From an uncultured Phycisphaerales bacterium (lineage in GTDB: Bacteria > Planctomycetota > Phycisphaerae > WQYP01), in the NCBI GenBank assembly GCA_903845195.1, contig CAIMWO010000057.1:9186-73185 (forward strand): a stretch of 64,000 nt of DNA. Direction: 5' to 3'. The notes beneath the pieces were generated by a model. It did no database searches. It had not been told where the DNA came from and worked only from the letters and a program-made list of their open reading frames with translations. The position numbers and the translations under genes are program-made. Shown piece after piece: positions 3,663 to 56,121 of the stretch. How positions within the stretch are numbered: position 1 is the first letter of the stretch; each line of letters begins with the position of its first letter.

Positions 3663-3780
3663 GAGAAGCAAGAAACAAGAATTAAGAAGCAAGAATGGCT
3701 GACGCCGGGAATGGGGTTTCCATCGCCGGGATGGCTATTTCTATTCTTGATTCCTGCTTCTTGCTTCTTGATTCTTTCTT
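3663..3780. terminator. Inverted heptamer tracts between convergent purH and yggS (possible bidirectional terminator)
   Basis: An AGAAGCA-type tract (3663-3696) faces its reverse complement (3741-3780) across a spacer of about 45 nt. The two can pair as a long imperfect hairpin. Confidence 0.4.
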
Positions 3781-5793: not shown

Positions 5794-5837
5794 GAGGGAA
5801 AGTTTAGCAGATTGGGGGGGGGGAGAGAAATTCAGAA

Positions 5838-6080
5838 TTCAGAGTTCGGAATTCAGAATGGGGGGACGACGTTACCACGAAGACGCGAAGTGCACGAAGG
5901 ATCACGAATTTTCACCACAGAGTCACAGGGGGACGGAGGACGCACAGAGAGTTCAGAATTTAGAGTACGAAATTCAGAATGACGGGGCGGAGGGGGTGGC
6001 AAGGTGACATGGTGACAAGGGGCCGTTCATTCTGGCTTCTTGGTTCTTGATTCCTGCTTCTTACTTCTTGGTACTGGCCA
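5838..6080. repeat. Composite of at least five different short-period tandem tracts
   Basis: Consecutive tracts are AATTCAG-type (5838-5869, 5951-5990), CACGAAG-type (5884-5918), CACAGAG-type (5923-5950), GGTGACA-type (6009-6028) and CTTCTTG-type (6044-6070). Confidence 0.8.
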
Positions 6081-6125
6081 CTCGATTGTTCTTTCCAAAG
6101 CGGGGGGAGGCGGTAAGATGGGGTC

Positions 6126-6653
6126 ATGCGACGATGTTGGATCATCAGGGGGATTTTTGTGGTGCCGGTACTGCTCTGCGCATTCGGGTGGTGGTGGAGT
6201 GGAACGCATATTAGCCGAAGCGTCTATTTTCATCAGGGACGATCGGTAACATGTCTTCTGTGGCATGGTCACATTGACCTTATTTTTGCGCGGGACTATC
6301 AAAGTTGGTCCAGCGGCTGGGGGTTTAGTTCTTCCACTGAGGCTGCCCAGTTTTGGCCCGGAGCCTACGATCGTCCCCGGTACGGTTTCGGCGTTCAGCA
6401 TCGTGGGCGTGATCACTATTACGATACCAGCTTGGTAGTTCCGTTCTGGTTTCTCAACGTCGTGTTTTCGGCGATCTTGTTTGTAGTCTGGCGAAAGACG
6501 GGGGCCAAGGTTCGGGCGGCGGCGGCGTTTCCGGTGGAGGTTGCTGCCGCTAAGGCAATCACGGCTAATGCTTGGCATACGCTAACTGCTCCCGACACGT
6601 TGGTGGCACCGAATACAGCCCCGACAAATCAAATTGGAAACACAGCGACCTGA
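6126..6653 (+). CDS. Small two-TM protein, divergent member of the four-copy paralogue family
   Basis: MRRCWIIRGIFVVPVLLCAFGWWWS...PFWFLNVVFSAILFVVWRKTG...AAFPVE aligns with the ORFs at 8946, 9478 and 10026. It has an extra C-terminal tail of about 30 aa. TAAGAT lies 6 nt upstream of the ATG. Confidence 0.65.
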   Translation: MRRCWIIRGIFVVPVLLCAFGWWWSGTHISRSVYFHQGRSVTCLLWHGHIDLIFARDYQSWSSGWGFSSSTEAAQFWPGAYDRPRYGFGVQHRGRDHYYDTSLVVPFWFLNVVFSAILFVVWRKTGAKVRAAAAFPVEVAAAKAITANAWHTLTAPDTLVAPNTAPTNQIGNTAT

Positions 6654-6679
6654 CCTTGATTGCTCAATAAAGGCAAAAG

Positions 6680-8239
6680 ATGAGACATTCCATCACTACG
6701 GTGTTCATGATCATTTTGATATGCATCGCGGCACCTAGCTGTGCTGATCGGCCTGTGCCCAGACCGGCGAACGCTTCTTCGCAGGCCGCGCCAGCCACGC
6801 AGCCGACGACAACGGATCGTACAAAGCATTGGAATATTATCCTCGGCGAAATTACCTCGTGGGTCCGGAACGACGACGTTCCACATGGCATTTTCGTTGT
6901 GACCATAGAAATAAGAACAATCAGTGACAAACAGGGAAAAATTGAGCCCGGTACCCTGGTACGTGTGCAGGCCGAATACTCGCTGGGACCGGTGTTCACT
7001 AATTCAGGCCACGACCTTCCCGCAAAGGAACCCAACGGCTCTATCATCGCGTGGCTGGTTGCTGAGACCGAGACCAAGAACAGATACGAGTTCTTAACTG
7101 CCGAACTTCATTGGGGCCTGATAGAAAACGATGCGATTCCGCCGGTGAAGTTGGCCGACGCCAGGGCCGCGTTTGCGGAATCGACCATGACAGACGCTCT
7201 AGGCGAGCCGAAGGAGTCCGAACACAGGCGTGCCTACGAATTGATCAATGGAAACAACGATTACCTGTGGTCATTGGGCGTGTGGCGGCTTTCCCGGAAG
7301 GCCACCCGGTCAGACTATGGAATATTGAAAAAGCTCTATGTTGAGCAAGACCTTACGATAAAACAGGCGTACTGGCTTGATTCCTGTATCGGATCAATGG
7401 CCAGTGCTGACCATGAGTATCCTGATGACCACGTATGTCATGGCCTCTTGTTTGAGTACTTGCGGAAGCATCAGCACAAATTGGCTGCTACGCATCCCGC
7501 AAAGCAACAAAATAGTCCGGCCACGCAGGCCGCTCCAGCGACGGCTCCAGCGCAGGAGAATATCGTTTTAGGCGAAGTGATATCGTGGAAGGAAGAAGCT
7601 GCGGATCAGAACGGGGTCACCGTAGAAACCGTTCAACTCAAGGTGGCGGCCGACAAACAAAGCAATATCAAGCCCGGGGCCGTGGTGAAAGTGATCAAGT
7701 TCCACGAGATGACAGCGATCCGGGAATTTGGACCGCAACTTCCCAAGAAAGTGCCTGACGGGTCCATCGTCGCGTGGCGCATAAAGGCGACCGGCAGCGG
7801 ACAATATGCCTTTCAAACCAGCGATCTTCCTTTCGGGCTGCGCGACGACGATACGATTCCGCCGGAGAAGTTGGCGGACGCCCAAGCGGCACTGGTGGAA
7901 TTCTCGTGGGCGGATGTGCAATGGTCGGTACGACCGTCACGCGCCAACGCGTACGAATTGATCGCGGGGCACAACTATTATCTCTGGGCATTGGGTGTAT
8001 GGCGGATCACTCAAAACGCGACAATGCCGGACATTGAGCGATTGGAGCGACCATTACATAAAGATCTGACGATGGACCAGGTGGTGTGGCTGGATCTGGC
8101 CTTGCGGAATCTTAACCCTGCCGACAACGAGCCACCTACCCTTGCACCGAACTTTCGGGAGCTTCACCAGTTCCTGCGCAGTTGGATGTGGCGTCAAGTC
8201 TATGAGCAGCCGCCAACGATCCAACCAATAATGAAATGA
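6680..8239 (+). CDS. Secreted or lipid-anchored protein with an internal tandem duplication, unknown function
   Basis: N-terminal signal-like helix ending in ..APSC. Two halves (about aa 50-290 and 295-519) align: NI(I/V)LGE(I/V).SW...K.G..V.V, DGSI(I/V)AW, (I/T)PP.KLADA.AA, AYELI.G.N.YLW.LGVWR, DLT..Q..WLD. G+C looks lower than the flanks. Confidence 0.6.
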   Translation: MRHSITTVFMIILICIAAPSCADRPVPRPANASSQAAPATQPTTTDRTKHWNIILGEITSWVRNDDVPHGIFVVTIEIRTISDKQGKIEPGTLVRVQAEYSLGPVFTNSGHDLPAKEPNGSIIAWLVAETETKNRYEFLTAELHWGLIENDAIPPVKLADARAAFAESTMTDALGEPKESEHRRAYELINGNNDYLWSLGVWRLSRKATRSDYGILKKLYVEQDLTIKQAYWLDSCIGSMASADHEYPDDHVCHGLLFEYLRKHQHKLAATHPAKQQNSPATQAAPATAPAQENIVLGEVISWKEEAADQNGVTVETVQLKVAADKQSNIKPGAVVKVIKFHEMTAIREFGPQLPKKVPDGSIVAWRIKATGSGQYAFQTSDLPFGLRDDDTIPPEKLADAQAALVEFSWADVQWSVRPSRANAYELIAGHNYYLWALGVWRITQNATMPDIERLERPLHKDLTMDQVVWLDLALRNLNPADNEPPTLAPNFRELHQFLRSWMWRQVYEQPPTIQPIMK

Positions 8240-8520
8240 AGGGAGCTATGGCGACAACCTCTAGGGCTTTTCGCATGGACGCTGTAACTTCAATAGCGTC
8301 AACATATGGTGATCTACTCCCGGTCCTATGTCTGTGCTACTTACCGTAATGACCCGACATGATTGGCAGTAAATAGGAGGACCAAATTAGGCCTTGAGTC
8401 TTGGGTCTTGGCCAGTGGACAGAAGGTCACCTCGCCATTCTGAATTCATCATTCTGCATTCTGAATTCTTCCCGCCTTCCCGCCCACCAACCCTCATTTT
8501 TGACCTAAAAACGCGGTTTC

Positions 8521-8884
8521 GATGCTTCGGGAGGCTCATCCGGTGCTTCGGGAGCCTCTTCCGATGCTTCGGAAGGCTCATCCGAAGCAGGGAATGCCTC
8601 ATCCGACCCTTCGGAAACCGCATTCTCTGCTTAAAATGGCCCTTTCGACGCTTCGGATGCCTCATTCCATCCATGGAATGCCACGTTCCATGCTTACAAA
8701 GGGTCATTGCATGCTTACATTGAGGCGTTGCAGGCTTACATTGAGGCGTTGTAAGCATGCAAAGGATCATTGCATCCATGCAATGAGGCGTTGCAGGCAT
8801 GAAAAGCCGTTTTTCAGGCTTACAATGAGGTTTTGTAAGCCTGCAATGGGACGTTGGAAGCCTCCATCGAGGCATTGCAATCCC
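8521..8884. repeat. Degenerate tandem array of mini-hairpins with a period of about 21 nt
   Basis: About 17 units of 19-23 nt. Clear stem-loops are at 8566-8588, 8672-8692, 8734-8756, 8757-8775, 8779-8795, 8800-8816, 8818-8840 and 8860-8873. Confidence 0.75.
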
Positions 8885-8945
8885 CCGAAAAGCATTCTTG
8901 CTCCGTCACGGACCACGGCTCACGATCCACGGCCCACGAGCGATG

Positions 8946-9401
8946 CTATTGCGTCTTGCCGCCCGGCTCACTCCGCGGCGCGGTGAGCTCCACCGGAAAC
9001 GCCCGCCCCGTCCCGCGCGGCCGCGTCTTGCGCCAGACTACGAACAAGATCGCCGAGAACACGATGATCAGAAACCACCAAGGGGCGCCCAGCCGGGTGG
9101 AGGTGTGCGTCATATTATGCCGATCGGAATACCGAAACCCCAGAAAGGAATTGACACCGCGATAGTCCGGCCAGAACTGGGCGTAGGTTTGCGGCTCAAT
9201 TTGGCACCACCACCCGTCAGGCTCTCCCGTATTGGTGCCCCACTGCACATCGGCAGATCCCCACCAAGATTCGCACATGACAAAGCGGCCGTGATGGCCA
9301 TACCCGATCCACGTCGAGTGCGACCGGCTCCATCCCCACGCGCCGAGGCACAGAAGAATCGGCACCATGAAGAAGCTACGGATGATCCAACGTCGAAGCA
9401 T
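8946..9401 (-). CDS. Small two-TM protein, paralogue family copy 2
   Basis: 151 aa: MLRRWIIRSFFMVPILLCLGAWGWS...PWWFLIIVFSAILFVVWRKTRPRGTGRAFPVELTAPRSEPGGKTQ. Both ends are near-identical to copies 3 and 4. Confidence 0.7.
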   Translation of the reverse strand: MLRRWIIRSFFMVPILLCLGAWGWSRSHSTWIGYGHHGRFVMCESWWGSADVQWGTNTGEPDGWWCQIEPQTYAQFWPDYRGVNSFLGFRYSDRHNMTHTSTRLGAPWWFLIIVFSAILFVVWRKTRPRGTGRAFPVELTAPRSEPGGKTQ

Positions 9402-9477
9402 GGCGGCATCTTACTGCGCCACCCAACCGAGAGACACTCGCCCCTCCGCCATCACTCCCCCCGCACCGCGACCGGCG

Positions 9478-9921
9478 CTATTGCGTCTTGCCGCTAGGCT
9501 CACTCTGCGGCGCGGTGAGCTCCACCGGAAACGCCCGCCCCGGCCCGCGCGGCCGCGTCTTGCGCCAGACCACGTACAAGATCAAAGAGAATACGACGAT
9601 CAGAAACCACCAGGGGGCCTTCAGCAGGTGCAAGGTTTGCGTCGTAATACGCCCATGGAAATACCGAAACCCCCAAAAGAAATCGACCGGCCAGAAATGG
9701 GCCTGGAGTTGCAGCACAGTTCGACACAACCACCCGTCAGGCTCTCCTGTATCGATTCCCCACTTCACACCGATAGTTCCCCACAAAGATGTGCACGCGA
9801 CAAAGCGGCCGTGATGACAATATTCAACCAAAATCAAGTGCGACCGGCTCCATCCCCATGCGCAGAGGCACAGCAGAATCGGCAGCATGAAGAAGCTACG
9901 GATGATCCAACGTCGAAGCAT
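9478..9921 (-). CDS. Small two-TM protein, paralogue family copy 3
   Basis: 147 aa with the same N- and C-terminal modules and a divergent middle segment. Confidence 0.7.
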   Translation of the reverse strand: MLRRWIIRSFFMLPILLCLCAWGWSRSHLILVEYCHHGRFVACTSLWGTIGVKWGIDTGEPDGWLCRTVLQLQAHFWPVDFFWGFRYFHGRITTQTLHLLKAPWWFLIVVFSLILYVVWRKTRPRGPGRAFPVELTAPQSEPSGKTQ

Positions 9922-9971
9922 TGCCGTATCTTACTGCGCCACCCAACCGGGAGACACTCGCCCCTCCGCCC

Positions 9972-10025
9972 TCACGGCCCACGGTCCACGGACCACTGAC
10001 CACTGACCACTGACCACGAACCACG
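9972..10025. repeat. Heptamer tandem tract, CCACGGN/CCACTGA family
   Basis: cacggcccacggtccacggaccactgaccactgaccactgaccacgaaccacg. Related tracts are at 8907-8940, 10528-10563 and 56017-56052. Confidence 0.8.
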
Positions 10026-10478
10026 CTATTGCGTCTTGCCGTCCGGCTCACTCCGCGGCGCGGTGAGTTCCACCGGAAACGCCCGCCCCGTCCCGCGCGG
10101 CCGCGTCTTGCGCCAGACCACGTACAAGATCGCCGAGAACACGATGATCAGAAACCACCAAGGGAACTCCAGCAAGGTCGAGGTGTGCGTCTCAGTACGC
10201 TCATAAAAATAATGAAACCCCGGAAAAGTAGTACCGCGATAGGCCGGCCAGAAACGGGGATGGTCTGCCGGCCAAGTATGGCACCACCACTCGTCAGGCT
10301 GTCCGTGACTGGTTCCCCACCGCACGTCGACAATTCCCCGCGCAGAATAGTACGAGACAAAGCGCTCGTGATGACAATACCCGATCCGCATCCAGTGCGA
10401 GCGGCTCCATCCCCACGCGCCGAGGCAGAGCAGAATCGGCACGATGAAGAAGCTACGGATGATCCAACGTCGAAGCAT
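10026..10478 (-). CDS. Small two-TM protein, paralogue family copy 4
   Basis: 150 aa with the same modules. The 3' end of about 137 nt differs from copy 2 at about 4 positions by hand count. Confidence 0.7.
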   Translation of the reverse strand: MLRRWIIRSFFIVPILLCLGAWGWSRSHWMRIGYCHHERFVSYYSARGIVDVRWGTSHGQPDEWWCHTWPADHPRFWPAYRGTTFPGFHYFYERTETHTSTLLEFPWWFLIIVFSAILYVVWRKTRPRGTGRAFPVELTAPRSEPDGKTQ

Positions 10479-10527
10479 GGAGGCATCTTACTGCGCCACC
10501 GAATCGGGAGACACTGGCCTCTCCGCT

Positions 10528-10617
10528 CTCACGGCCCACGGCTCACGAACCACGACCCACGATCTTCTTGCTTCTTGCTTCTTGCTTCTTGCTTCCACCT
10601 TCTAACTTCTAACTTCC
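10528..10617. repeat. Three abutting heptamer tracts (CCACGNN, CTTCTTG, CTTCTAA)
   Basis: cacggcccacggctcacgaaccacgacccacg, then (cttcttg)x4, then (cttctaa)x2, just upstream of dapA. Confidence 0.8.
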
Positions 10618-10671
10618 AGTCCCCGTCCGTGATACAATGGGACTCTGTTCGATTTTACAGGAGCGGCAGAC

Positions 10672-11565
10672 ATGTTTCGTGGTTCGATTACGGCGCTGGT
10701 CACACCCTTTAAGAACGGCAAGTTTGACCGGGCGACATTTGAGAAGCAGATCGGGTACCAGGCGGAGAATGGGACCAACGGGATCGTGCCGGTGGGGACG
10801 ACCGGGGAGTCGCCGACGCTGAGCCATGCGGAGCACCATGAGGTGATCGAGGTGGCGGTGAAGGCGGCGAAGGGGACGGGGATGAAGGTGATCGCCGGGA
10901 CGGGCTCGAACGCCACGGACGAGGCGTTGGATTTGACGGTATTCGCCAAGAAGGTGGGCGCCGACGGCGTGCTGCAGGTGGTGCCGTATTACAACAAGCC
11001 GACGCAGGAAGGGCTGTACCGGCACTTCAAGGCGATTGCGGGTGCGGCGGACATTCCGGTGGTGCTGTACAACATTCCCGGGCGCACGGGCATCACGATG
11101 AGCAACGCGACGGTGGCGCGGCTGGCGAAGGATTGCCGGAACATCGTAGGCATGAAGGAAGCGACGGGGAGCCTGGATAGCGCCAGCGAGTTGTGCCGCA
11201 CGATCGGCAATGGATTTGTGGTGCTGTCGGGCGATGATTCGCTGACGGTGCCTATGATGAGTGTCGGTGCGGTGGGCGTGATCAGCGTGGCGACGAACAT
11301 CATTCCGAAGCAGATTCGGCAGATGGTCGATGCGGCGCTGGCGAATGATTTTGCGGCGGCGCGGGCGATTCATCACCGGTATTCGGATCTGATGAAGGCG
11401 TTGTTCGTCGAAGGCAACCCGATGGGCGTGAAGACGGCGATGCAGATTCTGGGCCGCGATACGGGCGAGATGCGCTTGCCGCTGTGCGAAGTGAGTAGTG
11501 CGGCGTGCGGGACGATACGGGCCGCTTTGTTTAATGTGGGATTGATTGAGGATGGCAGGGCGTGA
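10672..11565 (+). CDS. dapA: 4-hydroxy-tetrahydrodipicolinate synthase
   Basis: 297 aa. GSITALVTPF, GIVPVGTTGESPTLS and YNIPGRTG are DapA hallmarks. Confidence 0.95.
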   Translation: MFRGSITALVTPFKNGKFDRATFEKQIGYQAENGTNGIVPVGTTGESPTLSHAEHHEVIEVAVKAAKGTGMKVIAGTGSNATDEALDLTVFAKKVGADGVLQVVPYYNKPTQEGLYRHFKAIAGAADIPVVLYNIPGRTGITMSNATVARLAKDCRNIVGMKEATGSLDSASELCRTIGNGFVVLSGDDSLTVPMMSVGAVGVISVATNIIPKQIRQMVDAALANDFAAARAIHHRYSDLMKALFVEGNPMGVKTAMQILGRDTGEMRLPLCEVSSAACGTIRAALFNVGLIEDGRA

Positions 11566-12200
11566 TGAGAATTCAGAATTCAGAATTTAGAATTCAGAAT
11601 GCTGCTGGGTGGGGGCGGTGTGCGGTTTTTGCGGTGCTGATCGGGGTGATTGGGGGGTGTCAGGGATTGGAGAAGAAGCCGGCGGGGGGTGTGGCGACGC
11701 AGGAGGTGACGGGCGAGGGGGTGAGTGCGACGGAATTGCGGGATGTGCTGGCGGATCTGGGGCGGGCGCATGGGCAGAAGGTGCAGTTGGCGTGGTGGGT
11801 GAGTACGCCGCTGCGGCCGGTGAGTCCGCAGTTCGTGAAGTTTTACGAGAACATGGGAGTGCAGCAAAAAGAACTGCAGACGGAGTTGAAGGGGTGGGCC
11901 AAGACGCACCAGGTGGATCTGACGTTTCACTATACGTCGGATGTCTACAGCGAAGGGCAACGCATCATGGAGCAGCGCCAGGAGAAGATGGTGCGGGATG
12001 ATGACCAGCCAAATTTTGAGCGGGACAATTTGATGCAGATGCATCAGGATTACGAGTGGCAGGTGAGCCTGATCAGGGCGCTGCTTCCGAGCGTGAAGGA
12101 GGCGGGGCTGAAGGCGTATCTGGAAAAGAGCCTGGCGGTGCATGAGGCGGGGTCGAAGGAGATCGTGGGGCTGCTGCGGGGATTTAAGTTTCAGAAGTAG
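11562..12200 (+). CDS. Putative lipoprotein, DUF4142-like (tentative)
   Basis: Start overlaps the dapA stop. Lipobox-like VIGGC. The C-terminal FERDNLMQMHQDYEWQVSL...LKAYLEKSL resembles the DUF4142 pattern. The first codons lie in an AATTCAG heptamer tract, so the true start is uncertain. Confidence 0.45.
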   Translation: MMRIQNSEFRIQNAAGWGRCAVFAVLIGVIGGCQGLEKKPAGGVATQEVTGEGVSATELRDVLADLGRAHGQKVQLAWWVSTPLRPVSPQFVKFYENMGVQQKELQTELKGWAKTHQVDLTFHYTSDVYSEGQRIMEQRQEKMVRDDDQPNFERDNLMQMHQDYEWQVSLIRALLPSVKEAGLKAYLEKSLAVHEAGSKEIVGLLRGFKFQK

Positions 12201-14237: not shown

Positions 14238-14302
14238 GGAGTTTTTTTACCACCAAGGCACCAAGACACCAAGAATTTTCAATTATCAATTTTCAATTTT
14301 CG
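14238..14302. repeat. GGAGTTTTTTTACCACCAAGGCACCAAGACACCAAG element (copy B) plus a TCAATTT heptamer tract
   Basis: Direct repeat of 12206-12241 with one indel and one substitution, followed by ttcaattatcaattttcaattttc. Confidence 0.8.
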
Positions 14303-17716: not shown

Positions 17717-20700
17717 GTGCCCTTTCGCAGGGCACTGACCACCGCGGCGTCGCGGGCGCTGAGGTCGGGGTAATCCTTGTCGGAGCCGACGTCGGGGCGG
17801 CGTTTCCAGGAGCGGGCGCAGGAGGGGTATTTTTCGCGGGTGTCTTCGATCTTGATGTCCCAGATTTCTCCGTGTTCGATGCGGTGGAAACCTACGCCGA
17901 GGGCGTCTTCGATTTCCGGGCCGTATTGGGCGATGAGCTTGGCCACGTCGTCGTTGGTGGAGGGGACGATGATGACGGCTTCGGCGTCGAGGGCGTTGCC
18001 GAGGCCGACGGATTTCTTGAGGTCGTCGAGTTGCTTGTTGCCTTTCTCGATAAGCGGCATGAGGACGCCCCAGTGTTTCTCTGCGTGTCCCATCGGATTG
18101 CATTCGAAGACTTCAAATTGTGCCAGATGCACACTGCGAGTCAGAGAGCCACCCCCTGGAAGTTTGCGCATTTCATTCCACGCTTCCTCCGCAGTAAAAG
18201 CAAGGATCGGAGCAATCAGCTTGACGAGATGCTCGAGAAGGAAGCAGCACATCAACTGTGAACCTCGTCGTTTCTTGGAATCAGGCAGTTCGCAGTAAAG
18301 GCGGTCTTTAATGGCTTTTGCATAAACGGCGCTGATCTCAACATTGCAGAACTCGTATACGAGTTTGAAGACATTATGGAATTCGTAGCGTTCGTACGAG
18401 CTGAGGACTTGTTCCTGCAACTGCGAGAATCGCCATTCCATCCAACTGTCAATGGAATAAGGTTCAAAACCAATGTGGACACCCGTTTCGTAGTTGAAAT
18501 CGTAGAGGTTGCCGAGGAGATAGCGGATAGTGTTGCGGATTTTGCGGTAAGCGTCGGCAGTCTTGGCCAGGAGGTTGGGGCCGCAGGGGATGTCGTTTTG
18601 GTAATCGACGCTGGAGACCCAGAGGCGCAGGACATCCGCACCATATTGCTTGAGGGCGGTTTCGACTTTGATGCCGTTGCCCTCAGCCTTGGACATCTTG
18701 TGGCCTTTTTCGTCGACCACGAAGCCGTGGGTGAGCACTTGCTTGAAGGGTGGCTCGCTCTTGTAGCCGCTGGCTTCGAGGAGTGAGGACTGGAACCAGC
18801 CGCGGTGCTGGTCGGAGCCTTCGAGATAGAGGTCCGCAGGATAACCAAGCTCGGGGTGAGTGCATTCGAGGACGGCGTGGTGGGAGGCGCCGGATTCGAA
18901 CCAGACGTCGAGGATGTCGGAGGACTTGGTCAATTCTGAATTCTGAATTCTGAATTCTGAAATCAGGCGTCCATCGGGTGTGATGACCGTGTCGGTCCAT
19001 TCTTCTGCACCGAGGAGTTGGGCGGGGGTGTGGGTGTACCAAGAGTCGGCGCCGTGCTCTTTGAAGTAGGCGCCGATGCGGCGGACGGATTTTTCGGTGA
19101 AGAGGATGTTGCCCTTGTCATCGAAGAAGGCGGGGATGGGGACGCCCCAGGAACGCTGGCGCGAGATGCACCAGTCGGGGCGGGTGTCGAGCATGCCGTC
19201 GATGCGGTTTTTGCCCCAGGCGGGGATCCATTGGACGGAATTGACGAAGGCTTTGGCATTGGACCAGAGGGGGGAGGAGGCTTGAGTCTTGAGTCTTGAG
19301 TCTTGAGGTGCGGTGGATTCGCCAGCATGCTCCTGACGGGGCCCCTGCCCCATCAGGAGCATGGCACCCGAATCACCCGATGGGGTGTCGTCGGCGGAGG
19401 CGGCTTTGACGAACCATTGTTCGGTGGCGCGGAAGATGACGGGCTTTTTGCAGCGCCAGCAGTGCGGGTATTCGTGGTCGAACTGCTGGTGGTGGAAGAG
19501 GGCGCCGGTTTGCGTGAGCTTGTTGATGACCATTTCGTTGGCGGCCCAGATGGATTGGCCTTTGAGGAAGTCGGGGACGGTGTCATCGTATTTGCCGTCG
19601 GCGAGGACGGGGTTGTAGATTTCGAGGCCGTACTTGATGCCGGTCTGATAGTCTTCCTTGCCGTGGCCGGGGGCGGTGTGGACGAGGCCGGTGCCGTCGT
19701 CGAGGGTGACGTAGTCGGCGAGGACGACGGGTTGGATGCGATCACGGACTTGGCTGTGCGAGCCCGTTAGCCCATCAAGTTCCATCTGTTTTGAGCCGTC
19801 GTGATTGTCAGGCATTCCGAGTGGATGGAAATACTTAAGTCCCATTTCGACTAGATCCCGGCCGCGCACCGAGCCATTTGCCTCCGATCTCGCGAAATAA
19901 CCCAGGTTGCGGATTCGATCGTGTGCTTCTGCCGCAACGATCACGCATTTTGTGTAGTCGCCATTGGATTCCGGGTCAGTCTTCTCCCGGTACCAATACA
20001 CTATGTATTCGTGATCAGGATGAACCGCGACCGCACGATTTGCGGGGAGGGTCCAGGGAGTCGTTGTCCAAATCATTAAATACGCATGGCCAGTGAAGGG
20101 TTGGAGTTGCTTGATGAAATGTTCAGTGGTGGAGTTTGATGGTTTCAATGCGGCTACATTAGCGAGCTTAAAATTGACATAGATCGAATGATCCTTCCGC
20201 GTCGCGTACTCGAGTTCCGCCTCCGCCAGTGCCGTGCGGTCATTGGTGCACCAGTGGACGGGTTTCTTTTTGCGGTAGACGAGGTCGCGCTTTACGAGTT
20301 CGGCGAGGACGTCGAGGATGCCGGACTCGTATTTGGGGTTGAGGGTGAGGTAACGGTCCTGCTCACCGGGGCCGAAGAAGATGCCGAGGCGGGCGAAGCT
20401 GTCGGACTGGAGTTGGACGTACTTCATGGCGTAGTCGTGGCACTTCTGGCGGACCTGGTCTTTGGAGAGCTCGCGGAACTTGGGGCCGAGTTCCTTCTGG
20501 ATGGCGGACTCGATGGGGAGGCCGTGGCAGTCCCAGCCGGGGACGTAGGGGGCATCGTGGCCCTGCATGGTGCGGAACTTGATGACGATGTCTTTGAGGA
20601 CCTTGTTGATGAGGTGGCCCATGTGGATGTCGCCGTTGGCGTAGGGGGGGCCGTCGTGGAGGACCCACTTGCCTTTGGGGTGCCCCCCCCGGCGGTCGCG

Positions 20701-30239: not shown

Positions 30240-31685
30240 GTGGGAATCAGAGGCTCAGAGGCAGTGATGACAATCCTCGGCGCAACCAGTTTCACGTTCT
30301 CCATGATCCTGCAGCCCTACATGCCGGTATTCTACGTGTCGTTTCTCGTCACGTTGATCCTCACGCCCATGATGCGTCTGCTGGCGCATCGCCACGGCAT
30401 CGTCGACGATCCGGATGGCAAGAGAAAAGTCCATACCCAGCCGATCGCATATTTGGGTGGCGTGTCGATCTTTCTCGGCTGGCTCGCGGGGGTCTCGATT
30501 TCGGTCTTTCTGCGTCCGCACAATGCCGAGCAGATCGCCCAGAGCTACGTGCAGATTCCGCCGGGCATACTGCTCGGAGCGGCCATCATCGTGCTCTTCG
30601 GATTGATGGACGATGTGTACTCGCTGTCGCCCAAGATTAAACTCGTCGGGCAGCTCCTGGCCGCGATGTTCCTGATTCTGCCGGGCGCTATTCACATTGG
30701 TTCGGACTATTTCCTCGGCATCGGCGGCGGGACCGGCGAAGGACCCTCGCAATCCGGCGCCGCATGGATGTTCATCATGCCGTTGCAGCACTATGGGATA
30801 TTCGGAAGCATCGGCCAGATGGATCCGCAGATGCAGCACTGGCTGATTCTGGGGGCTTCCAGTTTTTCCTGTCTGTTCGCGGTTTTCGTGATCATTGCGG
30901 CCTCGAACGCGACCAATCTTCTCGACGGGCTGGATGGTCTGTGCTCCGGGGTGACGGGCGTCATGTCGGTCGGCTACCTGATCCTGGCGGTTTACCTGGC
31001 GTACAAGGTGATCGGCACCGACGGCGGATCGCCGCTCGACCCCACCCGCATTACGCTTTCGCTGGCCCTGCTGGGCGCCGTCATGGGCTTCCTGCCGTTC
31101 AATTTCAATCCTGCATCAATTTTCATGGGGGATACCGGCTCCATGTTCCTCGGCTACATCTGCGGCACGATGATGCTGCTCTTCGCCCAGAACGGTACGA
31201 TCCGCTGGTTCCTCTCGGCGATCATCATGTTCGGCCTGCCCATGCTCGATACCTTCCTGGCCATCGTGCGGCGCAAGCTCAACGGCAAGCCGATTTTTTC
31301 GCCGGATTCCAATCACTTTCACCACTTCCTGATCCGCCGCGGATTGTCGGTGCGCCAGGCGGTGCTGCTGAGTTACGCGGTTGCGGCGGTGTTTGTCAGT
31401 TTCGCGCTGGTCATCGTTATCGTTCCGACGCGCATGGCGATCGGGCTGTACCTGGTGCTGTTCGGGTGGATCATCGTCAGTGCCTTCAAGATGGGCATGA
31501 TCTTTCAGAACGCCACGGTTGTGGCGTCAAACAACAGCATCAATGCGGCCGTCATGGGTACCACGGTCGCCAACAATGAGCCGCTGCATACCGCCGACAA
31601 GCCCAACCTCCCACCGGACAGCGGCGCCCTGAATGGCATCGACGGCCCGGTTCCCGATGCGGTCAAGAAACGAACGTTTTCCTAA
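30240..31685 (+). CDS. Polyprenyl-phosphate N-acetylhexosamine-1-phosphate transferase (GT4, WecA/MraY family)
   Basis: MDDVYSLSP, NATNLLDGLDGL, FMGDTGSMFLGY and about 10-11 TM segments. An alternative ATG lies at 30267. Confidence 0.8.
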   Translation: MGIRGSEAVMTILGATSFTFSMILQPYMPVFYVSFLVTLILTPMMRLLAHRHGIVDDPDGKRKVHTQPIAYLGGVSIFLGWLAGVSISVFLRPHNAEQIAQSYVQIPPGILLGAAIIVLFGLMDDVYSLSPKIKLVGQLLAAMFLILPGAIHIGSDYFLGIGGGTGEGPSQSGAAWMFIMPLQHYGIFGSIGQMDPQMQHWLILGASSFSCLFAVFVIIAASNATNLLDGLDGLCSGVTGVMSVGYLILAVYLAYKVIGTDGGSPLDPTRITLSLALLGAVMGFLPFNFNPASIFMGDTGSMFLGYICGTMMLLFAQNGTIRWFLSAIIMFGLPMLDTFLAIVRRKLNGKPIFSPDSNHFHHFLIRRGLSVRQAVLLSYAVAAVFVSFALVIVIVPTRMAIGLYLVLFGWIIVSAFKMGMIFQNATVVASNNSINAAVMGTTVANNEPLHTADKPNLPPDSGALNGIDGPVPDAVKKRTFS

Positions 31686-42700: not shown

Positions 42701-42837
42701 TCGGAATGCGCCAGATAGTACCGAACGAGGGGCGTGGTGAAGACGAACGGCCCACTGGCCAGCACCGCGCCGACGATCGCGGCGGCGGCAGCCACACGAA
42801 ACCTGCGTTTCTTCGTCAATCCTTGCAGAAAGTGCAT
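39781..42837 (-). CDS. Large N-terminally anchored envelope protein, AsmA/TamB-like (tentative)
   Basis: 1018 aa with a single N-terminal TM, then a long beta-rich, S/A/L/G-rich sequence with no catalytic motifs. The call rests on architecture only. Confidence 0.4.
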   Translation of the reverse strand: MHFLQGLTKKRRFRVAAAAAIVGAVLASGPFVFTTPLVRYYLAHSDFAPYGITFEKARLSPTGSLSIDNLVIQDVEQSARETLVSADRVRLDFSWTQVWQQRMQTVDVSGLQVYLRAGREQPLTIMSLLKLSDYVSGSPSATTRPAARVPLWFDQLLLSGMVHVEGFEAWQKALPETVGGEIPLQLRIQSSGSRDLPTRNISLLMGERDVLLGTLPSLGARLTIKPQRSGDYEIAIDGISLRRCHAVLSAVQLSALIPGFDRCDPAFQRAFDSSADAIQLSGKLTLGGASQIDVNLDVGNFAVAARPENPPLNLDNCSLQARIQAPLDETFRKTLRISGATISWDALQCGPWRLSRASADFELDNSGLDIIKAQAAFSDGTLVCSAIWPLDARFPSRGTINARAVNAARILARLPDDLRNQLALTVDGTLSGKLTFTSQTDDKFSGYVELGTGDDFQIQSSRTAGLGAVVLHNASINGQMDWSGNAQEWPALTKGMFHADGLSLAGFSFKDLSADVLFQDQIVSVKSLHSVLGQDSRLTFSGSYDFSDGSIAAASLSASHVTSAALASWLPAGMEVETAADLSVMLTRPSAQDDPYAINATLVLPERSTISLNEGLATISGHPVVAAYATVARDFQSSFNAQIKAVGFKAVGVDDALLQQLTHLPSHPFKNGLTLSWYAISAALSSDSAHPHLSAIIDVSGLDGNAMLDSGSAFEVKNCSLNAAMASPWSTADPLRQVTCSSAIIALDKLTSGTNTLGNLHAQATLDKGQLVFSPEFKVSFAGGTITGTAQIDLPMGSLASANLKFTHLDQAVLTANLAPDRFTAEGMVSGEVAIKRNDRDQLVGNIELATEGPGVLHFDHETAEKQIAPVAREAALAVSTLPPTFDQIVTDQLANYPYSSGMVKASDQDGELRIHLDYSRTPLMPGDPGYGVKVQIAGRDVLANYPISLKWLTVTIPQTSVAQVVAKATGFFESHAAPRKLTPSQATQPAATAPAAAQAATSPAEAASMPASSLPDR

Positions 42838-42977
42838 TACGCCATCTTAACGCCATTTGCTTCCCGCGAAACTCTTCCGCATGATCTTCTTGAAATGTTG
42901 CTGGGCATCCTGTGTGCTCTTCATATAATCGGTACACGGCGTTGGGCTGGCTCGACAGGACTGAAGCGGGAGATTTT

Positions 42978-45717: not shown

Positions 45718-47892
45718 TTACTGACTCCCGGCCCACTTCTGCCACATCTGGCGATAGGCGGCTTCGATGTTGCGGGCGAAACGCGGGGCGTCCATGAGGG
45801 GGGATTTCTGCATTCGCAGGCGGAGGGTTGAACGAAGCTCAGTGAGACGGGGGAGGTCTTGAGCAAGGGATGTGGCGATCTGCACGTACTCATCGGGTGT
45901 GGATGCGACGAGTTCGGGAAGGCCAATGTTGGAGAGGATGCTCAATCCGGCGCGGCTGACGGCGGTGTTGCCGGCAAGACTGACTACCGGCACCCCCATC
46001 CAAAGGGCGTCGCAGGTGGTGGTGCCGCCGCCATAGGGGAAGGGGTCGAGGGCGATGTCCATCTGCGAATAGAGTTGCAGATACTCGGACAATGGCACCT
46101 TGCTGACAACACGCAAGCGCGCCGGATCGATCCCCCACTGTGTCAATCGCTCGGCGGTGCGCTGGCGATGAGAACCCTCGGCCGCATGCAGGAGCAGTTG
46201 CGAATGGGGCACGGCGTGAAAAATACGAGCCCAGATGGCAAGGGTGGGATCCGTGACTTTGCAGAAGTTATTGAGGCAGCCGAAGGTGGTGTGGCTGGCG
46301 GAACTGGCGGGCAGGGGGCCGACGGGCGATGTGTCCTGGGGTTCGTAGCACCAGTAGGTTTCGGCCAAGCGGATTGTTTGTTCGCTATAGACGGACTCGT
46401 CAATGCCCGGTGGATCGAGGTAGGGGTCGCTGAGGCGGCAATCCATGGTGGCGAGGCCGGAAGTTCCGGCATAGGCCAGGTAAGTGACCTGGACCGGTGC
46501 AGGTTTACGGGCGAAGACGAGGAGGCGATTGTGGGCCATGTGCAAGGTCAGATCGACCAGTATGTCGATGCCGTCATCGCGAATGAGTTGGGCTGCCTGT
46601 TCGTCGGAGAGCCCGATCGTGCTGCACCAGTGATCGGTAAGTTCCCGCAGGCGTGCGGTCACGGCATCCGGGGCGCGCACATGGGCATAGCAGAATATCT
46701 CAAATCGGGAGTGATCGTGGTTCGCCAGCAGCGGCAGCATGAAATGGCCGACCACATGATCACGGAAATCGGGGGAGACGTAGCCGATGCGCAGGCGACG
46801 GTCGGGTGTGCGGTCATTGGGGTGGGGTTGGATCGATTGCCGCAACGGTTCAGCGTGTTGTTGATTCCAGCGCTGATGCTCGTGGTGGATGGCACGGGCG
46901 CTGTAGTCGGGATGGAAGTGGAGGGTGTAGACGAGATTACTGTCGGCTGCGACGTAGTCCGGTTTGACCGCGACCGCCTGTCGATAGGCAGCGATGGCTT
47001 CATCCAAGCATCCCATGTCCTTCAGCGTATTGCCAAGGTTGCTGTGCGCTTCGGCATAGTTGGGTCGCAGCGCGATGGCCTGCCGGTAAGCGGCGATGGC
47101 CTCATCGAGTTGCCCTTTATCTGTCAGTGCAGCGCCGAGGTTGGTGTGCGCTTCCGGGTAGTTGGGCCGCAGTGCGATGGCCTGCCGGAAAGCGGTAATG
47201 GCTTCATCAAGTTGGCTCTTTTCTGCCAGGGCATTGCCGAGGTTGTTGTGCGCTTCCGGGTAGTTGGGCCGCAGCGCTATGGCCTGCCGACAAGCGGCGA
47301 CCGCCTCATCGAGTTGCCCATAATCTCTCAGGGTATTGCCGAGGTTGTTGTGCGCATCCGCGTAGTTCGGCCGCAGTGCGATGGCCTGCCGGTAAGCGGC
47401 AACGGCCTCATCAAGTTGGCCCTTTTCTGCCAGGGCATTGCCGAGGTTGCTGTACGCTTCCGGGTAGTTGGGCCGCAGCGCGATGGCCTGTCGGAAAGCG
47501 GCAATGGCCTCAGTGAGTTGGCCTTTTTCTGCCAGGGCATTGCCGAGGTTATTGTGCGCTTTCGGGTAGTTGGGCCGCAGCGCTATGGCCTGCCGACAAG
47601 CAGCGACCGCCTCATCGAGTTGCCCATTATCTCTCAGGGCATTGCCAAGGTTGTTGTGCGCTTCCGCGTAGTTCGGCCGCAGTGCGATGGCCCGCTGAAT
47701 CAAGTCCACGGCCATGTCATTACGGCCTACCTGATGGGCGATGACTCCAAGGAGATGCAGGGCGTCGGGCTGATTGGGCTGGTGGACCAGAATCTGGCGG
47801 TAGAGTTGCTCAGCCTCAGTGAGTCGGCCTGCCTGATGGTGCTGCACGGCGGTCTGAAACAACTGGTCGAGGTTAGTGGTGACATTCAGCAC
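45718..47892 (-). CDS. TPR-repeat protein with a SPINDLY/O-GlcNAc-transferase-like (GT41) C-terminal domain
   Basis: There are at least 9 TPRs, seven of them near-identical, followed by RIGYVSPDFRDHVVG...VTYLAYAGTSG...FGCLNNFCK...YSQMDIALDPFPYGGGTT. Start proposed at the GTG at 47892, by analogy with the MLNVTTN start of the paralogue. Confidence 0.8.
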   Translation of the reverse strand: MLNVTTNLDQLFQTAVQHHQAGRLTEAEQLYRQILVHQPNQPDALHLLGVIAHQVGRNDMAVDLIQRAIALRPNYAEAHNNLGNALRDNGQLDEAVAACRQAIALRPNYPKAHNNLGNALAEKGQLTEAIAAFRQAIALRPNYPEAYSNLGNALAEKGQLDEAVAAYRQAIALRPNYADAHNNLGNTLRDYGQLDEAVAACRQAIALRPNYPEAHNNLGNALAEKSQLDEAITAFRQAIALRPNYPEAHTNLGAALTDKGQLDEAIAAYRQAIALRPNYAEAHSNLGNTLKDMGCLDEAIAAYRQAVAVKPDYVAADSNLVYTLHFHPDYSARAIHHEHQRWNQQHAEPLRQSIQPHPNDRTPDRRLRIGYVSPDFRDHVVGHFMLPLLANHDHSRFEIFCYAHVRAPDAVTARLRELTDHWCSTIGLSDEQAAQLIRDDGIDILVDLTLHMAHNRLLVFARKPAPVQVTYLAYAGTSGLATMDCRLSDPYLDPPGIDESVYSEQTIRLAETYWCYEPQDTSPVGPLPASSASHTTFGCLNNFCKVTDPTLAIWARIFHAVPHSQLLLHAAEGSHRQRTAERLTQWGIDPARLRVVSKVPLSEYLQLYSQMDIALDPFPYGGGTTTCDALWMGVPVVSLAGNTAVSRAGLSILSNIGLPELVASTPDEYVQIATSLAQDLPRLTELRSTLRLRMQKSPLMDAPRFARNIEAAYRQMWQKWAGSQ

Positions 47893-51917: not shown

Positions 51918-52142
51918 CCCCTAAACCGCCATCGCAATCGCGATGCAATCGCGGCAGAAAAATATCGCCCATTCAAAGGAGGGGTGTGATATCACAACGC
52001 CCCCTCGCGGTAAAGCCGATCCCCCTAAACTTTCACTATTCACCATTCTCCATTCACTATTCCCCACCCTTGACACCTTTTCATCTATCGACCATCATCA
52101 ATACTCCTTTTTCGTACCCCTCTTTCCGCTCAAGGAGCTCTC

Positions 52143-55496: not shown

Positions 55497-56121
55497 TTGC
55501 TCACACGCGCACGAGAGCCTGTCGGCTATGTCGGCGCGGTCTCTCCGCCCCCTCCCAACTGTGCGCACGCCCATCACCCCCCATCCGCCCCCAGCAAAAA
55601 ATATTTCCGCCGCTAACTCCCGCCCCTCCCATTACCTACAGATTCTCCCCTCCACACCTGTGCGCACAAACATGGTCCTCCACCCCTTATATATACGCCC
55701 AATCCGTGCGTTCACTTACAGCTGACCACATAAGGTGCCCGCATGAGCTTCTCACTGAAATCTCTCCGTGCTGGCTCCGCGTCCTCCGTACCTCCGCGTT
55801 CCCGTACTCCGTCGTGCCGTCGTGTCGCCGTGGTTGAAATCCCGCCTCTCTCGATAATCGTTTGCGCATCTCCCTCACAAGAACCCCCCTCCGCACCCAA
55901 CCCTCGGACCCAGTGCGACTTAGAAAACCAAAACAAAAAACACGCCCTGCGCAGGTGCGCAAAAAAACCTGCGCATCTCCCCCCAAGAATCTGCGCAGGT
56001 GCGCAAACCCCCCTCGGCCCACGGATCACGACCCACGAGCCACGAGCCACCCTCCCCATTCTTTTGCGTTTTCCCCCTAATCGCCCTAAACTGCTCCGCT
56101 CATTTTGAGGTACCAAAAGGT

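Follow-up and report, generated by a model that had tools for sequence, protein, structure and literature searches.

A tandem array of predicted two-pass membrane proteins with conserved ends and a diverging middle domain in an uncultured Phycisphaerales bacterium

Four genes for small predicted membrane proteins, three of them in a tandem array, were analysed in a 64,000-nucleotide (nt) stretch of DNA from an uncultured Phycisphaerales bacterium (assembly GCA_903845195.1, contig CAIMWO010000057.1, positions 9,186 to 73,185; referred to below as the window). They belong to a large, undescribed family whose predicted fold has no significant match in PDB or BFVD. The ends of these proteins are conserved and the middle is diverged; in the young clade that contains the three tandem genes, recombination in the 5′ and 3′ ends reassorts the middles and keeps the tails specific to each array. 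The tandem genes lie on the minus strand in the order C (10026–10478; 150 amino acids, aa), B (9478–9921; 147 aa) and A (8946–9401; 151 aa), and a convergent fourth gene, D, lies on the plus strand (6126–6653; 175 aa). Positions and lengths of these four open reading frames (ORFs) agree with those given in a preliminary description of this DNA, and tblastn yielded these four alone, with no fifth copy within the 64 kb. A, B and C are 64–72% identical to one another at the protein level and about 40% identical to D. All four are recognized by a hidden Markov model (HMM) of the family with E values ranging from 2.5e-44 to 4.6e-62 (A, 5e-62; B, 4e-57; C, 5e-58; D, 2.5e-44), and copy C is present in identical form in six other assemblies.

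The layout common to A–D consists of an N-terminal RRWxIR motif, a first transmembrane segment (TM1), a middle of about 78 residues, a second transmembrane segment (TM2), the sequence VWRKTRP…AFPVE and a short tail. The two-TM architecture ascribed to these genes in the preliminary description is present in all four copies. Each protein has two hydrophobic segments and a basic N-terminal flank, five of the 11 residues past TM2 are lysine or arginine, and the middle is neutral in net charge and contains 5–9% tryptophan. These basic flanks and the neutral middle support the earlier placement of the middle outside the cytoplasm by positive-inside logic, as a predicted topology. An AlphaFold2 model of copy A, computed from a 54-sequence alignment, reached a predicted local distance difference test score (pLDDT) of 88.5 and a predicted template modelling score (pTM) of 0.74, with low confidence in the tail. 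It contains helices at residues 2–25 and 108–126, in line with the predicted TM segments, and six strands at residues 28–36, 39–46, 49–57, 63–70, 89–95 and 99–107. What had been called a loop is thus predicted to be a folded domain, a beta-meander of six strands. A Foldseek search with this model returned nothing with E≤1e-3 or a TM-score above 0.3 in PDB and BFVD.

Across 178 representatives of the family, signature residues are conserved at 76–99%. Near-invariant positions are R4, W5, I7, R8, F11, L17, C18, W22 and S25 in the N-terminus and TM1, Y34, G48, GW and LGF in the middle, and P-x-WF, VWRKTRP (within VWRKTRP-x5-AFPVE) and AFPVE in TM2 and the tail; R4, W5, I7, R8, W22 and S25 are found in 84–97% of the representatives. 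All four window copies have an N-terminal [KR]RWxIR followed by a TM1 that ends in GWxWS, and likewise PxWF at the start of TM2, VWRKT(R)P and [AG]FPVE, with D reading VWRKTG…AAFPVE. The tail motif is of the [AG]FPVE type in 164 of the 178 representatives. Copy D represents a diverged subfamily with the tail RGGVRAAAAFPVEVAA, to which the proteins P0022 and P0024 also belong. Few parts of the protein match TM1 in conservation, and this argues for a retained helix rather than a cleaved signal peptide. In form, the [KR]R-W-hydrophobic-I-R motif resembles a twin-arginine (Tat) signal; RR occurs in 100 of the 178 representatives and KR in 43, and the h-region is very hydrophobic, but no Tat-signal model exceeded its threshold in scans of Pfam/NCBIfam-type libraries. 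A C-terminal sorting signal of the PEP-CTERM or Loki-CTERM kind was rejected, as about 25 residues including a conserved motif come after the basic cluster; the Loki-CTERM match on TM2 stayed below threshold (E 0.03–0.2; 12–14 bits versus a cut-off of 19.9). Weak matches to DUF4131, the N-terminal domain of ComEC, were seen in 12 of 54 members, covered a TM segment only and remained below the gathering threshold (best E 0.029).

Divergence among A, B and C is very uneven along the genes. The variable middle comprises codons 29–106 in A (9084–9317), 29–102 in B (9616–9837) and 29–105 in C (10164–10394), all on the minus strand, and corresponds in C to the predicted periplasmic beta domain; it is supported by sliding-window identity and by the ratio of nonsynonymous to synonymous divergence (dN/dS, or omega) in A and B, in A also by the AlphaFold2 model, and in C by a dN of 0.37–0.46 versus 0.01–0.05 at the ends. 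For the pairs A–B, A–C and B–C, we counted 4, 4 and 6 nt mismatches in the first 84 nt, 56, 63 and 71 in the middle of about 230 nt, and 12, 6 and 14 in the last 135 nt. Sliding windows gave nt identities of 91–98% at both ends and 61–85% in the middle. Both measures agree with the near-identical ends and diverged middle of the preliminary description, and its estimate that about half of the middle residues are shared is matched by an amino-acid identity of 42–49%. The 5′ flanks are similar as well, as had been stated: 49–52 of 60 upstream nt are identical, most of them within the proximal 45 nt or so. In the B–A spacer (9402–9477, minus strand) this proximal block of about 45 nt (GTGTCTC.CGGTTGGGTGGCGCAGTAAGATGCC.CC) is common to A, B, C and the paralogue P0004; the C–B spacer (9922–10025, minus strand) contains, ahead of the conserved upstream block, a heptamer tandem repeat (9973–10025; CACGGAC, 7.6 units on the plus strand).

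In comparisons of A, B and C, the middle has a dN of 0.34–0.46 versus 0.016–0.07 at the ends, and a dS of 0.18–0.26 versus 0.06–0.18. Pairwise omega in the middle is 1.6–1.9 and declines towards roughly 1 for older pairs. Changes are most frequent at second codon positions (e.g. 24, 32 and 14 changes at positions 1, 2 and 3), which is the opposite of what purifying selection produces. A conservative star-tree count gave an omega of 1.2–1.5 in the middle versus 0.22 and 0.47 at the two ends. Omega is 2.5–3.2 in the most variable third of middle positions (p=0.04–0.11), this third being defined from 46 independent family members. The middle is certainly freed from the constraint that holds the ends, and clearly purifying selection, which would have been at odds with the preliminary description, is not seen there (omega 1.2–1.9). 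Positive selection probably acts on a subset of middle sites, but is not proven. The conserved anchors had been said to fit gene conversion. Recombination does occur in the ends; however, the main cause of their conservation is purifying selection on the TM and cytoplasmic motifs, because conserved ends around a variable middle are found throughout the family (about 1,600 clusters). When just A, B and C are compared, the ends do not have a significantly lower synonymous divergence than the middle (p=0.26).

Evidence for recombination came from close paralogues on other contigs (P0004, P0005, P0007–P0010, P0023 and P0077), which must stem from the species or genome of the window, given that the closest DapA from elsewhere is just 79% identical. 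The middles of these proteins form a star, the window copies sharing 42–49% identity among themselves and as much as 54% with copies on other contigs, and the last ten residues group strictly by array. Over all pairs, synonymous divergence is 0.04–0.16 in TM2 and the following motif versus 0.18–0.52 in the middle; three independent pairs gave 0.11 for the 3′ end versus 0.31 for the middle (p=0.0007). Conversion tracts, for which the preliminary description had proposed a test, were significant in a GENECONV-style permutation test, with C and P0007 paired over codons 114–144 (p=0.00025) and identical over about 125 nt. Within the trio, the odd one out is C in the middle and B at the 3′ end (p=0.014). 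The array locus is 99.9–100% identical in seven independent assemblies. In a strain-variant contig (L035) the sequence is the same as in the window through B, A and the spacers, and a different gene occupies the position of C. This gene is a mosaic of a 5′ end resembling an L010 paralogue, a middle 98.5% identical to that of P0007 and the 3′ end of C. Its 5′ junction, where about 13 nt are common with either source, cannot be an assembly artefact, because so short an identity is all that is available there. Two further proteins look mosaic: P0081 joins the body of C to the tail of B, and P0043 an A/B/C-type middle to a D-type tail. Tracts, mosaics, array-specific tails and 3′ synonymous divergence thus bear out gene conversion in a modified form, with the ends serving as substrates of recombination.

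The family extends far beyond the window. With a profile of the four copies, 76 clusters (90% identity) were retrieved; none of them has a Pfam domain, and the sole name that any source attaches to them is "hypothetical protein". An exhaustive HMM search of 1.84 billion representatives found at least 1,633 at E≤1e-3 (clusters at 50% identity) and 125 at E≤1e-30, mostly 135–180 aa long. The reading frame is kept in the 76 clusters and in the 1,633 representatives, which excludes chance. That the genes contain no named domain, as first noted, holds for Pfam, NCBIfam, PADLOC, PHROGs and PDB sequences, none of which gave a significant match; for a set of 54 members the same is true of Pfam, PADLOC, PHROGs and NCBIfam. 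A full-text search of the literature for the family motifs returned nothing. The long members P0131 and P0183, considered as domain fusions, turned out to be read-throughs into adjoining genes. Members that carry an organism name are Phycisphaeraceae, and all sources with organism information point to Phycisphaerae; the nearest named homologues of the window's DapA are from metagenome-assembled genomes of Phycisphaerales/Phycisphaerae (73–79% identity). The family thus appears to be confined to Phycisphaerae. No confirmed member was found in GTDB species-representative genomes by two scans limited to N- and C-terminal peptide patterns, or in viral contigs by a scan limited to one peptide pattern.

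The start of the genes can be placed by a promoter-like element. A −10-like box, TAAGAT, ends 6 nt before the ATG of C (10485–10490, minus strand), B (9928–9933, minus strand), A (9408–9413, minus strand) and D (6114–6119, plus strand), and every family gene that is free of upstream overlap has TAAGAT or TAGAAT exactly 6 nt before the ATG (−12 to −7). The box is present in the window and at the loci L004, L010, L011, L016–L018 and L027, the remaining upstream sequence there being unconserved. The pattern TARRAT-N6-ATG occurs six times in the window versus 0.75 times expected, four of the six at family starts; the other two (30320–30334 and 42835–42849, both on the minus strand) may mark further leaderless genes. 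By established promoter geometry the box sits where a −10 element would for transcription starting at the A of the ATG, and the family mRNAs are therefore predicted to be leaderless. The same position fixes M1 as the start codon. Public gene calls begin A, B and D at codon 12, i.e. 11 codons short, and some public assemblies annotate an antisense ORF in place of B. Arginine- and proline-rich antisense ORFs of 199–227 aa cover each copy (8898–9497, 9367–9999 and 10029–10712, plus strand; also 3370–3987 of L033). We rejected them as real genes, as they cluster merely as mirrors of the family genes; other frames do not explain the second-position excess either, and the family HMM and the structure prediction back the frame used here. 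The finding is real rather than an artefact, and existing annotation does not explain it. Annotators should be aware that the start lies 11 codons upstream of the usual call, that the genes are apparently leaderless and that an antisense ORF is sometimes annotated instead. Members other than those with a box overlap the stop codon of the preceding gene, which suggests that such copies are translationally coupled.

Tandem runs of family genes are present in every longer contig examined. They usually comprise 2–10 copies: about ten at L014, eight plus fragments at L011, four at L004, three each at L010 and L038, and two on several short contigs. Decayed fragments of family genes occur at L001, L025 and L026. 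Some proteins are genuine fusions of two units, the first of which lacks the tail and runs directly into the RRWxIR of the second; prediction of such a fusion reached a pLDDT of 63 and a pTM of 0.52, all single-unit homologues having aligned to the second unit only. The fragments, the fusions and the range of array sizes show that arrays grow and decay by duplication and loss.

The genes that adjoin the arrays vary between loci: Dus, DapA, GH43 and NlpC/P60 proteins in the window, GlnA3 and a dCMP deaminase at L004, HrpA and HrpB at L010, and nuo genes at L037. The array of L038 (2141–4030) lies a few kb from a SU10-type major capsid protein and an SPP1-type portal fragment, and that of the P0036 contig a few kb from a Prim-Pol/D5_N primase. 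All-versus-all clustering of the flanking ORFs of 13 loci recovered just the zinc-ribbon proteins described below and secreted leucine-rich-repeat proteins by the L011 and L014 arrays. The latter are encoded upstream of the arrays (L011, 7664–9882; L014, 2–880 and 3406–4293; all minus strand); the two loci may be orthologous and would then be no independent sign of a functional link. In the window, a 519-aa protein (6680–8239, plus strand) starts 27 nt past copy D. Its N-terminus resembles that of a secreted protein or lipoprotein, and visual inspection suggests two repeats within it, each about 250 aa long; it matched nothing in Pfam or NCBIfam and was not found at the other arrays among the 13 clustered loci. 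The GC content falls to 0.53–0.55 at 6001–9000, a segment that spans copy D, the 519-aa gene and the hairpin-rich spacer described below, versus about 0.60 elsewhere.

A larger group of relatives has the same TM–beta–TM core and, in place of AFPVE, a C-terminal zinc ribbon of the form CxxCGYDLR…CPECG. By profile–profile comparison the two groups are homologous over the whole core, N-terminus to TM2 inclusive (hhalign probability 98.7%, E=2e-16). These cousins are interleaved with AFPVE-type genes in the arrays of L013, L014, L011 and L010; we located them at 309–2019 and 7233–8297 of L013, 7063–8417 and 9393–10001 of L014, 15791–16615 of L011 (minus strand), 6796–7377 of L010 (minus strand) and 8001–8495 of L037. 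They have longer middles and amount to 3,893 clusters at E≤1e-3, part of which match the ribbon alone. The ribbon is absent from A–D and was seen in one of the 178 family representatives, and P0074 is a hybrid of the two types. One zinc-ribbon relative is from Tepidisphaeraceae. No description of the group was found in the literature, and the group adds no functional information.

What might such arrays do? With a little more belief than doubt, and judging from sequence, we favour the view that the genes encode variable recognition modules on a constant chassis. The products are predicted to be two-pass inner-membrane proteins of about 150 aa with both termini in the cytoplasm and a six-stranded antiparallel beta domain in the periplasm. 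The middle gains amino-acid changes at least as fast as synonymous ones, and its sheet would provide a specificity surface selected to differ among paralogues. The constant cytoplasmic motifs would tie every paralogue to one shared partner or process, a coupling in which the zinc ribbon of the cousins would stand in for the AFPVE motif. An array would then be a repertoire of alternative periplasmic recognition modules on a shared chassis, and its ligand or antagonist might lie among phage or toxin components with access to the inner membrane, among envelope polymers or among partner proteins. It is tempting to go further and to propose a repertoire driven by recombination, with cassettes replaced between strains, that controls access to the inner membrane (entry of phage genomes, envelope-acting toxins) or senses variable envelope ligands, the tails coupling all variants to one cytoplasmic effector; this more far-reaching model we consider rather unlikely.

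Several points weigh against these proposals and the evidence on which they draw. Function is wholly inferred, and clustering of the flanking ORFs at the 13 loci gave no conserved neighbour. The excess of omega over 1 across the middle is not significant (p=0.1–0.27, star-tree count), so that the diversifying selection first proposed finds support in the middle values of 1.2–1.9 and the 2.5–3.2 of the variable third, but not in a significant excess over the whole middle; moreover, the GC content at third codon positions of 0.70–0.76 may lower dS and thereby inflate omega. On the side of recombination, the low dS of the ends could in part reflect selection at the nucleotide level instead of conversion. 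The middles of older arrays are saturated, which makes the comparison of ends and middle uninformative there. In the L035 mosaic, about 125 nt are identical in both parents at the 3′ junction, which could therefore have arisen as a chimera during assembly, and P0081 is known just as a protein from a 599-nt contig.

Other explanations have to be weighed against a recognition repertoire. The paralogues might be subunits of one hetero-oligomeric assembly in the envelope or membrane that diverged by subfunctionalization, each coming to contact a different neighbour. The two-unit fusions, which yield proteins with four TM segments and a single AFPVE tail, are consistent with this, as are the stop/start overlaps in other arrays, which imply stoichiometric co-expression, the many intact and deeply diverged copies retained in old arrays, and the tendency of flat six-strand sheets to pair edge to edge. 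However, copy numbers from 1 to about 10, gene fragments and the replacement of a single cassette between strains fit a fixed stoichiometric machine poorly, and each window copy has its own promoter-like box. The two-unit prediction (pTM 0.52) gave no information. On balance we give the assembly model a minor chance. The preliminary description had drawn an analogy with immunity proteins, and the arrays could indeed encode protection against variants of a polymorphic toxin that acts on the membrane or periplasm, or a block to phage entry. Small arrayed membrane proteins with a fast-evolving exposed domain and strain-level cassette differences would suit such a role, and two arrays lie near phage or mobile-element genes. 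Yet no toxin, Rhs, contact-dependent inhibition (CDI) or secretion gene was found beside the arrays, either in the window or at the approximately 12 arrays examined, whose neighbours are housekeeping genes without a conserved partner. Neither PADLOC, PHROGs nor the Pfam immunity families were matched, and the pattern-limited scan of viral contigs was empty. Strictly conserved cytoplasmic motifs are, in addition, unexpected in a protein that simply binds a toxin. The analogy finds no support, and we rate the immunity explanation as unlikely.

About as improbable, in our judgement, is that the middle merely drifts because redundancy after duplication relaxed the constraint on the periplasmic part, with omega near 1 and no selection for diversity. 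The lack of a significant excess of omega over 1, its approach to about 1 in older comparisons and the presence of pseudogene fragments in the family are what drift would give. By contrast, all frames are intact with just two small in-frame indels between copies, the structural residues Y34, G48, GW, FWP and LGF are kept family-wide, seven assemblies have identical sequences, changes at second codon positions outnumber those at third positions about twofold, and old arrays hold intact members with the same fold signature. Pure decay of the middle is therefore unlikely. A targeted mutator such as a diversity-generating retroelement, whose variable region is superficially resembled by a variable segment between constant ones, was rejected, and we assign it next to no probability: no reverse transcriptase was found in the 64-kb window, where the sole ORF with a YxDD motif is a UvrD helicase, the substitutions form a mixed spectrum with many C/T, G/T and C/G changes instead of being adenine-specific, and the array is stable at 99.9–100% identity in seven independent assemblies.

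The favoured repertoire of recognition modules has partial counterparts among known systems. In pilE/pilS of Neisseria, vls of Borrelia and msp2 of Anaplasma, one expression site is combined with silent, promoterless partial cassettes and switches at high frequency. The likeness lies in the conserved flanks that let recombination swap a variable exposed segment, as indicated here by tracts and mosaics; unlike in those systems, all copies are full-length, each has a −10-like box, and the locus is stable in seven assemblies. Immunity arrays of polymorphic-toxin systems (orphan modules of CDI and Rhs loci and acquired interbacterial defence clusters) likewise consist of tandem, small and diverse paralogues, some of them membrane proteins. 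The genes studied here differ in having no adjoining toxin gene, no immunity domain match and conserved cytoplasmic motifs. Histidine kinases and chemoreceptors place a variable periplasmic domain between TM1 and TM2, with N- and C-termini in the cytoplasm. The predicted topology is the same, with a variable periplasmic domain set on conserved membrane-proximal parts, but there is no cytoplasmic output domain, just an AFPVE tail of about 25 residues, and the predicted beta-meander differs from the PAS, Cache and four-helix-bundle folds of sensors.

The nearest described parallel to the evolution of the array is the lpl lipoprotein cluster of Staphylococcus aureus, with inverted geometry. There, a conserved segment within the lpl ORFs is a site of homologous recombination, variable segments are shuffled between strains, and the evolutionary unit crosses gene boundaries (Tsuru & Kobayashi 2008, PMC2568036). 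Tandem paralogues with a conserved segment as recombination substrate are common to both cases; in lpl a conserved centre lies between variable ends, whereas in the present family conserved ends enclose a variable centre. The lpl products are lipoproteins of a host-associated pathogen and those of the present family predicted two-pass inner-membrane proteins of a free-living freshwater planctomycete, and there is no sequence relationship between the two.

Repetitive DNA is a further feature of the window. Tandem repeats with a period of 7 nt occur in many intergenic spacers of this genome, with units that vary (AGAAGCA, AATTCAG, CACGGAC, CTTCTTG, AGAATTC and others); in the window they lie at 1889–1921, 3664–3780, 5829–5859, 6030–6070, 9973–10025, 10564–10603, 11568–11600, 14274–14301, 18932–18961, 19277–19307, 52032–52066 and 56027–56050. 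Heptamers of the unit AGTAGAC are found in an equivalent place near the paralogue of L027 (about 430–470 and 1010–1040). The 519-aa gene and copy A converge on a spacer (8240–8945) that consists of repeats of period 21/42 forming serial hairpins, and RNA folding of 8500–8860 (minus strand) gave a z-score of −8.6; a public call of a 162-aa ORF within this spacer (8387–8875) is probably spurious. A further tandem repeat, at 47022–47830, has a unit of 102 nt and a super-unit of 306 nt (2.6 to 6.5 copies) and is probably coding.

Planctomycetota genomes contain many paralogous families that lack an explanation. The present family and its zinc-ribbon cousins together amount to thousands of clusters, and the family's confident predicted fold and sharp motifs make it ready to be defined as a family. 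The array also offers a clean natural example of modular gene evolution in bacterial tandem arrays that complements the lpl case of S. aureus. If the variable domain is a recognition surface, the arrays would represent a new variable-receptor or protection system in an environmental lineage; such a variable-receptor system would be of a new bacterial kind, built on an undescribed fold.

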